NCBI RefSeq assembly: GCF_036588685.1
Contig: NC_086374.1
Coordinates: 90,396,001 to 90,460,000, forward strand
From: Mytilus trossulus
Lineage: Eukaryota
Direction: 5' to 3'
DNA: 64,000 nt
A model generated the notes under the pieces. The model was not told the DNA's origin and made no database searches. It was given only the letters and a program-made list of their open reading frames with translations. The translations under genes were made by a program, and so were the position numbers. This document shows, piece by piece, positions 51,096 through 63,000 of this stretch; position 1 is the first letter of the stretch, and every line of letters starts with the position of its first letter.

Positions 51096-54000
51096 TCAGT
51101 CCTCCTCTTCTGGTGCTAATCCACCAAAAACTTCTGTCGGTACATGTTGCACTTGTACTTCTGTAATTAAAAAAAATAGTAGAAGCCTTTATTTTACATG
51201 TATTTTATAAATAAGACTTTGTCAAATTCATGTTCTTAGATTAAAAATGAATTTTCTAATGTCTCTTATCTAAACCTATATGGTAAAATGTATGCGTGTT
51301 TTCAAACTATGATTATAGCAATCACTCAAAAATTCATAATTTATATTAAAAAATATGTACAGAAAGTTGTAATTCTGCTTCAAAAGTAAAGACAAAAAAA
51401 AGCTCATAGGGGTACCCAACACTTAGACTAAAATAGATTTTTTAGTTAAATTTTCAAACAAAATTGAACAAAATAAAAACTTTGACCTGTTTTAACTACA
51501 CATTACACAGAAATCTTTTCAGTTTTTAACCAAAACAAAATTTCAATCATTGAGGAGTTTGATTTCTCTTTTATGAATAATATGTGATTAAATGTTCAGC
51601 TTATTTTTACTTTTAGCACCCTTATGTTTTCTAAAGAACCTTAAATCTCTTCAGGTGTTTTTAGAAGATAATTGGTATGAAGTTGTGTACAATAATAGTC
51701 TACCTTCAACGTTCTCATCCTCATCACTTGAGAAATCAGAATCAATGTTGATTTCATCAGGATTTGTTGTTTTAGTCATCTCTCCTAACTCTTCATCTGT
51801 AGTATTACTCCTATAAATAATACACAAAAATGTTTTCGATTAATTGTGTTAATATCTATTCAAAAATTAACAAACAGGATTTCTCTTGTTATATTTTAGT
51901 TGTTATTGGTTTAAACTAACTTTAATTTAACATTGTACTAGTACATGTATAACATCAGAACAGGAATTTACATTCATTAATATGAAGTGCATAATGTCTC
52001 TATCAGAGTTCTAAATAGGGGAAAAAACTGAAAATCACCAAAAAATTCAATAGGAAAGTCCATAATCACATGTCAAATCAAATGACAAAAACACATCAAA
52101 CAAATGGACGACAACTGTCATACAGAAAAAACATACTAATCTGGTTTTCATATACAAATCCCTAAGTACAATATTTATACCTGACAAATAGAATATTTTT
52201 ATCTGGTTTGGGTTGATCACGTAAGGATTCCTCTGCCAATTGTTTAGCTTTCTCTTCTAATCTCTTCATGTCATCTGTTGATTCTATAAATAGAAAAACA
52301 CATGTCAATATCTGAATACCCATTGTATCGTCTGTCTATCATGGTTAAGTACTAAGGATGAAGCATCCTCTATGAGATACAAATTTTCCTTGATTTTGTG
52401 GGCAAATTTAGTTTTCTATGTTGTGTTTAGTGTACTGTTGGTTTCTTTACTTTTAGCCATGCCATTGTCAGTCTATAATTCAGACGTGGGGTCAATTACA
52501 TTGGAATGTAATTAATTAAATTACACATTACATTGCAAAAATGATCAATTACATCAATTACACATTACACTGTTTTTGAAATGTAATTAATTAAATTACA
52601 ATTACTTTACTAAAGTAATTAATTAAATTACACATTACATTTTGTTATGGTATTTTTTAACAATATTATACATGTATAAAATATTCATGTAAGCATAGTT
52701 TAAGCATTGCATTTGATAATCATTAGTTATTTTAATGTTTTGTCATTTAGTCTGAATCTCTCTGGTCTGAACACTTTGACATCAATTCTAAATAGCTTTT
52801 TTTAATGCGGCAGATATTACTTGATCAGAACATGGAAGCTCTATGATCAGAAGATCATCATATTGAAAGGAGGGGGAATTCGTTCCTATTAACTTGACAA
52901 TACATCAAGGGGTATTTTGACATCTCAGAAATGAGGTCATTTAAATCAAACATAATATAAATAAAGATATTATACATAAATCATAAATATTTTTTTTTTA
53001 CATTAAAAATATCAAAAAGTGTGCTTGTCACAATATTGAAAATAAATTTTAGTACAAATAATGTATGTATAATGTCTAAATATTAGCAATATTTAAATTT
53101 GCTAATTAGATAAAAATACATGAAACAGTGGCATTGCCCCTTGACATTTTAATCTGATTAATTGCTGTTTGTTAATTTTGTTTTTACAGCTGTTAATTTT
53201 TATTTCTACAATCCTTTTTGTGTATACTAATTTGACAAAATGATTGTGTGCAGTGATTTTAAGTTTTAAATGAACTGTCTAAGAAAGATTTTTCACAGTG
53301 ACACTTTTTATTTGGTTTTTGTTTAACAGGATGATTAATTACTTATCAATCTTTTTAGTTAAAAAGATCTTTCTTAAGAAATGGACACTCGTATATGATT
53401 CTCACATTTTTTTAAAATTTATAATAATTATTAAAACAAAACATCTGTAGGTCAAATAAATATTATTATATACATTGTAACTTCAGTATAAATTACAGAC
53501 TTCATATATATATATATATGTATTAAAAAAGTATGTGATATCAATATTTGAAAAACAAGTATTATTTCACAATTTCTTTTATTAAACACAAATTCTTATC
53601 TTTAACACCATAAAAGTATATGTAATTCAAATGTAATTCAAAAGTAATTGAGCATTACATGCTTTTTTCAATGTAATTAATTAAATTACCATTATATGTA
53701 ATTGAAAAAATGCTCAATTACACATTACATTCAATTACATTGAAAATTGTAATGCATTACACTTAATTACCATTACATTTTCAATTACCCCAATATAGAC
53801 TCTATATTATAAGTTTGAATATCCCTTTGATATCTTTAAACTCTCTTATAAATGTTCAATTAAATACAAAATTTATATAATCTTGTATGCCGACTTTGGC
53901 AAAGCCATGAAATCACATATCCTTGAAAGTGCATGTTTTGATTTTAATTAAAAAAGTTAACCTGGATTATCTCCCTTGGCCCCTGCTGCAGCAGCTAACA

Positions 54001-57000
54001 TCTGTGACGACATGAAGTTCACCTAAAAAAATCATAGAATTGTTATACAGATCATCTTTTAAACAATAAGTTAACAAGAACATGCAACACAAGAAAATCA
54101 TATTTAATTACACTGTAATTAAGTTAACACAACAAATTGTATTCAATTACACTGTAATAAAGTTAACACAAAAAAATCATATTTAATTACACTGTAATAA
54201 AGTTAACACAACAAATTATATTCAATTACACTGTAATAAAGTTATCACAAAAAATCATATTTGATTACACTGTATTAAATAAAGTTAAAACAACAACAAA
54301 GAACCTTATTAACCACTGCATCTTGGGTAGTTTATGACAATGTCTCTTCCACAAAGTCTGCATGTTCAACTTTGTGAAAAAGACTAACCATGATCGATTT
54401 TGTATGCTGATAATCCTTTAGATTAAGTTTTAATACAAGGATGAAAATGTGGTCAAGGACAACAGACATATGACAGACACAAGTTTTGTATTATAACACA
54501 TTTTTACACTAGATTTGAAGCATCAAGGTCTTCTACCTCCAAAAAGCCTAATACATATAGTTGTAATTTGTCTTGCATTCTGCGACTTTTATTGCAGACA
54601 AGACAAAAAGATTTGTTGGCCTTTCAAGAAATGGATATTGTGACACTAACATGTGTATTATACCTAGCTTGTACACTTCTCTTTACACTTAATATTTCCC
54701 TGACTTTATCTAACCTGTCTATTACACATATACCTGTCTATTACACAAATCACTCATCTGTCTATTACACACATCACTCACCTGTGTATTATACATAGCT
54801 TGTACACTTCTCTTTATACGCAACATTTCCCTGACTGTATCTAACCTGTCTATTACACATATACCTGTCTATTACACACATCACTCACCTGTGTATTATA
54901 CATAGCTTGTACACTTCTCTTTATATGTAATATTTCCCTGACCGTATCTAACCTGTCTATATCACATACACCTGTCTATTACACACATCACTCACCTGTG
55001 TATTATACATAGCTTGTATACTTCTCTTTATACGCAACATTTCCCTGACCGTATCTTCATTACCATGTTTAATCTCAAACTCTTTCCACACTTGCCAGAA
55101 GTTAGGAGCTACCTACGAAATACATAATTATGAATTAACAATATGAAATATCACATATAAGAATAAATTGAAATAGCAAAATAAGTGATAGAACTACTAT
55201 TTTTTTTTGGTCTTTTTGTTAGTAAATTTTTGTACTTTAGGTGTACAGCAGAAAAATATCATGTCTCATTTAAAACCAACATTGAAAATTAAAAGTTATA
55301 AACATATTCATTTTTGGTTGTTGTAAAAAGCTTCATTTACTTAGAATAAAAAGTTCTAGCGCTATTATAGTACTTACTCTAGGATCACAGATTTGTGATG
55401 CATGAGAATAGATAGCTCTAGCTCTGTCAATCTCCCCTAACTTCCTCTCCAAATCAGCAAATCTTATACACATCTCTCTGTAAACAGTAAATATAAAGTA
55501 TATACATGTGTAATACCATATTGCACTTCATACTGTCTATGAGAACAATATTTAATTTAAAGGTGTACAAATTTACTATGCTTTAACAATCAAAGTTACC
55601 ACTCTTGAATAATTTAAATAGATAGGCTTTACTAATATTAAGTACATGATGTACAAGTAAATATATATTTTACGCTTTACTAATGTTAAGTTCATGATGT
55701 ACAAGTAATTATATATTTTACGCTTTACTAATGTTAAGAACATGATGTACAAGTAAATATATATTTTACGCTTTACTAATGTTAAGTTCATGATGTACAA
55801 GTAATTATATATTTTACGCTTTACTAATGTTAAGAACATGATGTACAAGTAAATATATATTTTACGCTTTACTAATGTTAAGAACATGATGTACAAGTAA
55901 ATATATATTTTACGCTTTACTAATGTTAAGTACATGATGTACAAGTAAATATATATTTTACGCTTTACTAATGTTAAGAACATGATGTACAAGTAAATAT
56001 ATATTTTACGCTTTACTAATGTTAAGAACATGATGTACAAGTAAATATATATTTTACGCTTTACTAATGTTAAGTACATGATGTACAAGTAAATATATAT
56101 TTTACGCTTTACTAATGTTAAGTTCATGATGTACAAGTAATTATATATTTTACGCTTTACTAATGTTAAGTTCATGATGTACAAGTAAATATATATTTTA
56201 CGCTTTACTAATGTTAAGTTCATGATGTACAAGTAAATATATATTTTACGCTTTACTAATGTTAAGAACATGATGTACAAGTAAATATATATTTTACGCT
56301 TTACTAATGTTAAGTTCATGATGTACAAGTAAATATATATTTTACGCTTTACTAATGTTAAGTACATGATGTACAAGTAAATATATATTTTACACTTTAC
56401 TAATGTTAAGTACATGATGTACAAGTAAATATATATTTTACGCTTTACTAATGTTAAGTACATGATGTACAAGTAAATATATATTTTACACTTTACTAAT
56501 GTTTTAAAGTACATGATGTACAAGTAAATATATAAATATATAAGTCATATTCTTCCTGTTGAAGAGTTTGTAATATAGACATGTTACTCACCGGGCTTGT
56601 TCATCAGGTAAAACTTCCAAAGCTTTTTCATAAATAGGTCGTGTATATGTCACACCATAAATCTCAGCTGCTCTTTTTATATACACATTAAACATCTATA
56701 AATAGAAATGTTATCATGTTTTTAAGGTAATGGTATATATTCTGCATAGTAAAAGTTTTAAATCATTAAATCATTAAAATGTCAAGTTATCTTGCTATTT
56801 AAGACTTTCTCATTCAAACAGCCATGGATGTAAAAAATTTAAATCAAAACATAGCGATTATACAAGGATAAGGCTATGGTATAACAAAATTTATTGCAAA
56901 TGCAAATTCTAAGAACAAATTTTAATCCTTATCATGCTTGGGAGGAAAAACATGGCTTTCGGTCTTAGAACTTTACACAGTACTGTGGATCCATTATTAT

Positions 57001-60000: not shown

Positions 60001-63000
60001 ATTTGGTAAAAATTTACATAAATTTACCAAATTAATGAAAATTGTTAAAAATTTACTATAAAGGGCAATAACTCCTTAAGGGGTCAATTGACCATTTAGG
60101 TCATGTTGACTTATTTGTAGATCTTACTTTGCTGAACATTATTGCTGTTTACAGTTTATCGCTATCTATAATAGTATTCAAGATAACCAAAAACGGCAAA
60201 ATTTCTTTAAAAATTACCAATTGGAGGGCAGCAACCCAACAACCAGTTGTCCAATTCATCTGAAAAATTCAGGGCAGATAGATATTGACTTGATTAACAA
60301 TTTAACTTCTTGTCAGATTTGCTCTAGATGCTTTGGTTTCATAGTTATAAGCAAAAAACTGCATTTTACCCCTATGTTCTATTTTTAGCCGTGGCGGCCA
60401 TCTTGGTTGAATGGCCAGGTCATCGGACACATTTTTCAAACTAGATACCCCAAAGATGATTGTGGCCTAGTAGTTTCAGTGGAGATTTTGTAAAAGATTA
60501 CTTAGATTTATGAAAAATGGTTAAAAATTGACTATAAAGGGCAATAACTCCTAAAGGGGTCAACTGACCATTTTGGTCATGTTGACTTATTTGTAGATCT
60601 TACTTTGCTGAACATTATTGCTGTTTACAATTTATCTCTATCTATAATAATATTCAAGATAATAACCAAAAACAGCAAAATTTCCTCAAAATTACCAATT
60701 CAGGGGCAGCAACCCAACAACCGATTGACCGATTCATCTGAAAATTTCAGGGCAGATAGTTCTTGACCTGATAAACATTTTTATCCCATGTCAGATTTCC
60801 TCAAAATGCTTTGGTTTTTGAGTTATAAGCAAAAAACTGCATTTTACCCCTATGTTCTATTTTTAGCGGTGGCGGCCATCTTGGTTGGTTGACCAGGTCA
60901 CGCCACACATTTTTTAAACTAGATACCCCAAAGATGATTGTGGCCAAGTTTGGATTAATTTGGCCAAGTAGTTTCAGAGGAGAAGATTTTTGTAAAAGAT
61001 TACTTTAATTTACGAAAAATGGTTAAAAATTGACTATAAAGGGCAATAACTCCTAAACGGGTCAACTGACCATTTTGGTCATGTTGACTTATTTGTAGAT
61101 CTTACTTTGCTGAACATTATTGCTGTTTACAGTTTATCTCTATCTATAATAATATTCAAGATAATAACCAAAAACAGCAAAATTTCCTCAAAATTACCAA
61201 TTCAGGGGCAGCAACCCAACAACCGATTGACCGATTCATCTCAGAGCAGATAGATCTTGACCTGATAAACATTCTTATCCCATGTCAGATTTCCTCAAAA
61301 TGCTTTGGTTTTTGAGTTATAAGCCAAAAACTGCATTTTACCCCTTTGTTCTATTTTTAGCCGTGGTGGCCATCTTGGTTGGTTGACCAGGTCACGCCAC
61401 ACATTTTTTAAACTAGATACCCCAAAGATGATTGTGGCCAAGTTTGGATTAATTTGGCCAAGTAGTTTCAGAGGAGAAGATTTTTGTAAAAGATTACTTT
61501 AATTTACGAAAAATGGTTAAAAATTGACTATAGAGGGCAATAACTCCTAAACGGGTCAACTGACCATTTTGGTCATGTTGACTTATTTGTAGATCTTACT
61601 TTGCTGAACATTATTGCTGTTTACAGTTTATCTCTAACTATAATTATATTCAAGATAATAACCAAAAACAGCAAAATTTCTTCAAAATTACCAATTCAGG
61701 GGCAGCAACCCAACAACCGATTGACCGATTCATCTGAAAATTTCAGGGCAGATAGATCTTGACCTGATAAACATTTTTACCCCATGTCAGATTTGCTCTA
61801 AATGCTTTGGTTTTTGAGTTATAAGCCAAAAACTGCATTTTACCCCTATGTTCTATTTTTAGCCGTGGCGGCCATCTTGGTTGGTTGACCGGGTCACGCC
61901 ACACATTTTTTTAAACTAGATACCCCAATGATGATTGTGGCCAAGTTTGGTTTGATTTGGCCCAGTAGTTTCAGAGGAGAAGATTTTTGTAAAAGTTAAC
62001 GACGACGGACGACGGACGCCAAGTGATGAGAAAAGCTCACTTGGCCCTTCGGACCAGGTGAGCTAAAAATCAACCCAAAAAACTGATTCGGTTTGGCCCC
62101 AGATGACTTTTATAATGTTTAACTCATTGAAAAGCTCCAAATTATCTCCCTTTGGCGCAAAAATATTATAATTTGATTGGTGGTGGTTGGTTAATAAAGA
62201 TTGCTTGAACATTTAAATGAAATATCCAATTTAAAATGTATGCAAGGTGTGGTCATATAAAAAGTGCCTCCCCCTCCTATTTTTACTTTGGGAACAGCCC
62301 TGAGGAGAATAACATCAGAGTAGTGTATCATACCTTTAGCAAACTTCTGAGGACAGTTTTCCAAGCATTGTTCAAACAAATCTCTAGCTCTTTCTAATTT
62401 AGTACCTTCCTAGAAAAACAAAATGTAAGAAATTCCTTTGATTCAATTATACTCTAGCTTCTAGTAGAATAAATTTCCATCAATAATTCAACACAGTTAT
62501 TCCTAAACTAATGCCAAAAACAACCATTATTATTTCAGTATAAAATATGATTAAACAAAAATTCCATGGAATTGTTTTATTGTCATTGATGACTAAGCCC
62601 AGTTTTTATTGATTCAACATTAAATATGTAGAAAAAAATATGAAAAATCCTACAAACTAACCACATACTGTAAACCAACTTATTTTCGCGAGTAGAAAAA
62701 TAATGCGAATATAAATCGTTGTGAATATGTCAATCTCTGATCTTTACTTAATAAACTTCATCAAGTAAGTCAGATAATTGCGAAATTAAAAAGCCACAAA
62801 GTGGTCAAAAAAGGGTTAAACGCAAAATAAAGTATCCGCGAAAATAAGTTGGTTTACAGTAATTGAAAATTTTTAACATGATTTTCAAAAAAACAACCTA
62901 AATACCTGCAACAAACTAACATTTAATATTGACTTACATATCGTTCTATAAACTTAACCAAGTAAGTGTTCCATATGTCGTACACATTTGGCCATTTAAA

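Follow-up and report, generated by a model that had tools for sequence, protein, structure and literature searches.

In the mussel Mytilus trossulus, the last 61 nt of exon 19 of SYF1 (XAB2), together with the 5′ splice site that follows them (the donor), are repeated three more times within intron 19. This raises the question of whether the copies divert SYF1 pre-mRNA into forms that carry a premature stop, as a sequence-only reading had proposed when it suggested that the array might act as a copy-number-dependent poison switch, or whether they leave with the intron. The locus lies on the minus strand of a 64,000-nt stretch of contig NC_086374.1 (positions 90,396,001 to 90,460,000; hereafter the window), in whose coordinates positions are given unless a locus is named. 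We consider it likely that the repeat forms a tandem minisatellite, with a first unit that reaches from the end of exon 19 across the donor, that the mRNA uses this first donor, and that the copies are neutral passengers removed with the intron.

The array starts inside a coding exon of SYF1

The identity of the host gene, proposed from the letters of the window, holds. Exon 19 matches human SYF1 703-737 (PDB 5mqf) with an E value of 3e-17, and both of its flanking junctions are present in RNA contigs. Mapping SYF1 with the adjacent genome stretches gives 23 exons and 22 introns, and translating the 23 mapped exons yields a protein with no difference from M. trossulus SYF1 (P0003, 844 aa). Elsewhere in the window, 46884-44539 on the minus strand is a single open frame of about 780 codons, whose cysteine patterns resemble those of RING, B-box and coiled-coil (TRIM-like) proteins; this assignment is putative.

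Tandem Repeats Finder (TRF) recovers the repeat of exon end and donor, whose units occupy 54645-55056 (Table 1). TRF reports a period of 107 (3.0 copies, 92%) at 54732-55056 and a period of 131 at 54644-54902. The 107-nt unit consists of the 61 nt of live exon and the first 46 nt of the intron. As the first copy overlaps the exon end and the splice site and the units follow it in tandem, the array is a boundary-spanning minisatellite. In a DNA search of the genome, the array stretch gave a single match.

Table 1. Features of SYF1 exons 19 and 20 and of the array in intron 19. Changes are differences from the live sequence over the 67 positions of exon end and donor; a slash marks the splice point.
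Feature	Position in window	Strand	Length	Details
SYF1/XAB2 coding exon 19 of 23	54996..55112	-	117 nt	VAPNFW...MYNTQ; last 61 nt belong to unit 1
Live 5′ splice site of intron 19	54990..54998	-		CAG/GTGAGT; 973-nt joint in X4, X7, X13
Intron 19	54995-54023	-	973 nt	
SYF1 exon 20, acceptor of intron 19	53962..54022	-		VNFMSSQML...; starts at 54022
Unit 1	54950..55056	-	107 nt	live donor after the exon end, then sub-repeats of 24 and 19 nt that end in CAG/GT at 54971 (+24, in frame) and 54952 (+43)
Unit 2	54843..54949	-	107 nt	exon-end copy, 4 changes; identical pseudo-donor after 54889; additional CAG/GT at 54864 and 54845
Unit 3	54712..54842	-	131 nt	exon-end copy, 2 changes; an additional 24-nt sub-repeat, its GT now AT; pseudo-donor after 54782 identical to the live one
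Unit 4	54645..54711	-	67 nt	partial, decayed; 10 changes; donor now CAT/GTTAGT
First in-frame stop on read-through, TAG	54957..54959	-		after 12 codons

Two of the intronic donor copies are identical to the live site, as the sequence-only reading had stated, and one has decayed. Of the sub-repeats, which that reading took for re-amplified donors, six keep their GT and one is dead. The 24-nt sub-repeat is identical to the exon end at 14 of 18 nt, and this likeness marks the 24- and 19-nt units as an older duplication of the exon-intron boundary, which was thus duplicated at two scales.

Reading through the live donor meets TAG at the place that had been predicted, 68 nt upstream of the nearer identical donor copy and 175 nt upstream of the farther one. 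A stop upstream of an exon junction typically leads to nonsense-mediated decay (NMD). If this junction rule applies in Mytilus, it would take in the products of donors beyond +39, whose use would remove the last 111 residues of SYF1. It would not take in those of the +24 pseudo-donor, which is in frame and stands before the TAG, so that its use would add eight residues and would not be poison.

The stop and the intact donors are as expected by chance

Within SYF1, the first in-frame stop comes within 12 codons in 11 of the 22 introns and within 35 codons in 18 of them, with a median of 13. The 12-codon stop of intron 19 is therefore no closer than stops elsewhere in the gene. At a divergence of 3-7%, a 9-nt donor would stay intact by chance with a probability of 0.53 in copy 2 and 0.73 in copy 3. 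At this divergence, chance alone would be expected to leave donors intact; the donors of copy 4 and of one sub-repeat are gone. Among the animals compared, the poison region shows neither conservation nor a mark of selection, as the units vary, copy 4 has decayed and the retention of donors lies within chance.

Scored with a matrix built from only the 21 other SYF1 donors, the pseudo-donors reach 6.6-9.4 bits, within the range of real donors (9.4 for the two identical copies and 8.0-9.2 for five sub-repeat sites). Since they score as high as the live site, it must be position, and not weakness, that keeps them quiet.

The copies appear to predate a change in the live exon

All three intronic copies have G, for Val, where the live exon has A, for Ile. 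Among the 120 homologues listed (of 850 found), 113 have Val here, and human SYF1 reads SVQA. Of the 11 members of the Mytilus cluster, 10 carry Val, those of M. edulis, M. galloprovincialis and M. californianus among them. The only member with Ile is the M. trossulus protein, P0003. Most simply, the copies would predate a Val-to-Ile change of the live exon; the suggestion that they preserve the ancestral allele is supported by these counts.

RNA contigs use the first donor

We compared four RNA-type and four DNA-type runs, taken from 24 listed runs that all consist of assembled contigs. Three of the four RNA-type runs (X4, X7 and X13) show directly that the main mRNA is spliced at the authentic site: they contain the 973-nt intron only, at contig depths of 222, 73 and 111, and match the Ile exon with zero differences. 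A joint of a distal donor to exon 20 is absent from the contigs of these runs, in which rare forms are lost during assembly and NMD is active, so that minor use of distal donors would not show.

In the fourth run, X20, a contig carries a joint of 54018-54778 that resembles use of the donor at 54782. We rejected this explanation and read the contig as normal mRNA of a Val allele placed on copy 3, because it ends at 54835, within the shared part (equivalent to 55049 in the live exon), because it overlaps by exactly 30 nt two contigs at 55020-55070 that continue into unique exon, and because the depths of these two exon contigs add up to that of the joint contig (6.33 + 9.9 = 16.2). The contig also has four differences in exon 20. 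Its overlaps place the main mRNA of X20 at the authentic site as well. Once X20 is explained, the joints predicted by the sequence-only reading, from 54889 and 54782 to 54022, are absent from the contigs of all four RNA-type runs.

Two contigs, 54732-54867 in X4 and 54630-54804 in X13, run unspliced through the copy-3 donor and could stem from pre-mRNA or DNA. The array contig of X4 has a depth of 21.5. Both alleles of the unique intron, at 11.3 and 10.3, sum to 21.6, and the mRNA reaches 222; these depths suggest, as a rough indication, that RNA with an extended exon is not abundant in this run. Stretches 54890-54944 and 55110-55329 have no RNA cover, and we draw nothing from them. We also considered the copies as new exons or micro-introns spliced through CAG/GT and rejected this, as there is no pyrimidine tract, inclusion of a 64-nt pseudo-exon would break the frame, and joints of this sort are absent from the contigs. 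Collectively, the live, first donor dominates, although the contigs do not show that the others are never used.

An array that leaks without being regulated, where noise in splicing would send a few percent of transcripts to the nearest pseudo-donors, is unlikely. Such leakage would yield in-frame products from the +24 site, and stop-containing transcripts from later sites that are degraded. It would fit the strong scores of the pseudo-donors and the account given by Borensztajn et al. (2006, PMC1557585) of human 6-16 (IFI6) and CBS, where the first two, proximal pseudo-sites are used; for CBS, PMC1395315 cites an association of repeat number with lower enzyme activity. A truncated M. galloprovincialis SYF1 model of 740 aa (VDI49690.1, P0123), which ends in VSDVFNR encoded by intron 19, is also consistent with leakage. 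However, this ending could be due to intron retention, distal splicing or a gene-model error, and the first and last of these explain it as well as distal splicing does. Moreover, the contigs of X4, X7 and X13 lack a distal joint, depth over the array in X4 shows no excess, and the eight-residue insertion expected from the +24 site is absent from all 11 members of the Mytilus cluster.

The array varies between animals

In X1, DNA contigs agree at every position with copies 3-4 and their junctions (54490-54736, 54775-54867 and 54838-54892). Copies of the exon end are also present in the DNA contigs of X3, X14 and X8, which carry other organism labels, and the head-to-tail junction of units is present in X3 and X14. 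The units themselves differ: X14 has a head-to-tail unit of 88 nt that lacks the 19-nt sub-repeat, and the sub-repeats of X4 vary in another way. Organism labels thus share the array while its structure varies, and it has persisted, a point against neutrality.

At 54633-54683, X4 contains a second allele with five differences around copy 4, which leaves the reference at 54683. To judge from the sequence at this point, it suggests a different end of the array.

Contig depth over the array exceeds that of the flank in each DNA-type run (88 versus 29 in X1, 146 versus 33 in X14, 46 versus 8.5 in X8 and 38 versus about 6 in X3). We did not accept this three- to sixfold excess as a measure of copy number, because the flanks may be single haplotypes.

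Whether in RNA-type or DNA-type runs, the whole array is not spanned by any single contig, as might be the case if it were an artefact of assembly. Nevertheless, an artefact is barely credible, as the units carry distinct substitutions, the X1 contigs are identical to copies 3-4 with their junctions, and the head-to-tail junction recurs in X3 and X14.

Boundary duplications are common in this genome

We searched splice sites for duplications with a k-mer test, followed by inspection by eye. In SYF1, 5 of 44 splice sites were flagged and four were real: the acceptors of introns 3 and 8 and the donors of introns 5 and 19. The flag at exon 14 was a partial chance match without a donor and was discarded. 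As a control we used 84 of 212 myosin and kinesin matches, those in 60 loci (one was without a locus), which provided 160 ends with enough flank. The test flagged six of these 160 exon ends, of which five, at three donors and two acceptors, held up by eye; the flag at the 3′ end of L064 is a single hit. In this control, the ends of matches mark exon ends approximately, and duplicates occur among the genes. SYF1 is somewhat richer in such duplications than the control genes, which speaks against a neutral reading, but the excess is not significant (Fisher p 0.10, or 0.06 on raw flags). The k-mer test replaced TRF, which in 30 myosin loci had reported a lone array, close to the edge of a match (L035, 5′ end).

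The layout seen at SYF1 intron 19 recurs in these motor-protein genes. At the 3′ end of the match in L047, a kinesin, the last 60 nt or so of the exon recur once, with an identical donor, 120 nt downstream, and at the 3′ end of the match in L025, a myosin, there is a single duplication of exon end and donor about 50 nt downstream. In the kinesin L064 (1170-1640, plus strand), the acceptor and about 110 nt of exon are triplicated with AG intact; L057 (minus strand, 3′ end of match) is a near-identical kinesin copy of L064 on another contig, in which a donor is repeated.

The other duplications within SYF1 are of both kinds. The intron 5 donor (L002:5772-5973, minus strand) has a 46-nt unit in 4.4 copies that spans the exon 5 donor; CAG/GTA survives in four downstream copies, and the first of them is identical to the live donor. 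At the intron 3 acceptor (L002:6470-6802, minus strand) there are two upstream copies that include about 30 nt of exon 4, at offsets of 114 and 224 nt, and AG is lost in both. The intron 8 acceptor (L002:2790-3230, minus strand) has two old, diverged copies, with the first 60 nt of exon 9, at 263 and 350 nt upstream, and these keep AG. Intron 3 suggested that acceptor copies lose AG while donor copies keep GT, an idea that L064 and L044, where AG is kept, contradict. SYF1 introns hold further tandem arrays in the window, at 55626-56534 (48 nt x 19), 54086-54279 (39 nt x 5) and 60038-61942 (494 nt x 3.9).

These data bear on the poison switch, by which the level of SYF1 or the number of units would shift splicing to distal donors and NMD would lower SYF1. 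SYF1 is a core spliceosome protein, the TAG lies upstream of the distal donors and of further junctions, so that the products would fit the junction rule, and the array is common to several organism labels. Yet the RNA contigs show no distal use, the stop and the intact donors match chance, and the same layout is found in unrelated genes. Poison elements are, as the papers on them describe, typically highly conserved, whereas this array varies between animals and decays, and no report of XAB2 autoregulation appears among the literature matches listed. The proposal of the sequence-only reading is thus not supported, and a regulated switch is highly improbable.

Known arrays of the same kind

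The SYF1 array is real and ordinary for this genome, and its kind is already known from human and lancelet genes. According to Borensztajn et al. (2006, PMC1557585), intron 7 of human F7 contains a 37-bp variable-number tandem repeat (VNTR) whose identical pseudo-donors are functional and unused while the upstream site is intact, and repeats in LMNB2 and PDGF are silent, with only the first donor in use. In VNTRs of the F7 type so described, as in SYF1, the first unit spans the boundary, identical intronic donors follow and the first donor is used; F7-type arrays vary between individuals, and in SYF1 the structure of the units does. LMNB2, with a 100-bp unit, is closest in unit size, whereas F7 has 4 nt of exon per unit compared to 61 nt in SYF1. 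Unlike F7, where donor choice is reported from experiment, the SYF1 array has nested sub-repeats that are older donor copies, few units, and a mollusc splicing factor as its host.

The mirages of lancelets (Adh3 and the globins BflGb6 and BflGb9), which in the account of PMC3087553 leave regular splicing undisturbed, are likewise tandem duplications of boundaries in an invertebrate, at donors and acceptors, and are described as unstable in length. Their units measure 10-160 bp, a range that includes those of SYF1, and their hosts are cephalochordates; ours is in a mussel. We found no literature on a Mytilus minisatellite at an intron splice site or on this locus, and nothing relevant on mussel NMD or mussel SYF1 among the matches listed. 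Unproductive splicing through poison exons is described for the splicing factors SRSF3, TRA2B, SMNDC1 and RBM39, which resemble SYF1 in the type of host and in that an alternative site would give a premature stop. Unlike the poison exons in these descriptions, the SYF1 array is a recent, variable repeat without conservation, and neither feedback nor use is among its observed features.

A model for the origin and silence of the copies

We infer an origin by slippage and unequal exchange, a first-come choice of donor, and neutrality. A short slippage duplication of the exon-intron boundary would first have produced the 24-nt sub-repeat; a larger duplication would then have copied 61 nt of exon with the start of the intron, and unequal exchange would have altered the length of units. 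The duplication presumably took place while the exon still coded for Val, and the live exon would later have changed to Ile without conversion of the copies. The first donor probably prevails because it is encountered before the others and bounds an exon of normal size; experiments show this for human F7, and we suppose it for mussels.

It is very unlikely that the array serves as an expression dial or feedback loop by diverting a share of SYF1 pre-mRNA, according to unit number or SYF1 level, to stop-containing forms. If it did, a repeat would have become the means by which a core splicing factor autoregulates, and this within a single genus. On the present evidence, the array is a clean invertebrate example of donor competition. 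It also sets a trap for alignment: normal transcripts of sister species fit copy 3 better and mimic use of a distal donor, since the ancestral Val codon survives in the copies. Such duplications are found at about 3% of the exon ends sampled in the genome of this mussel.
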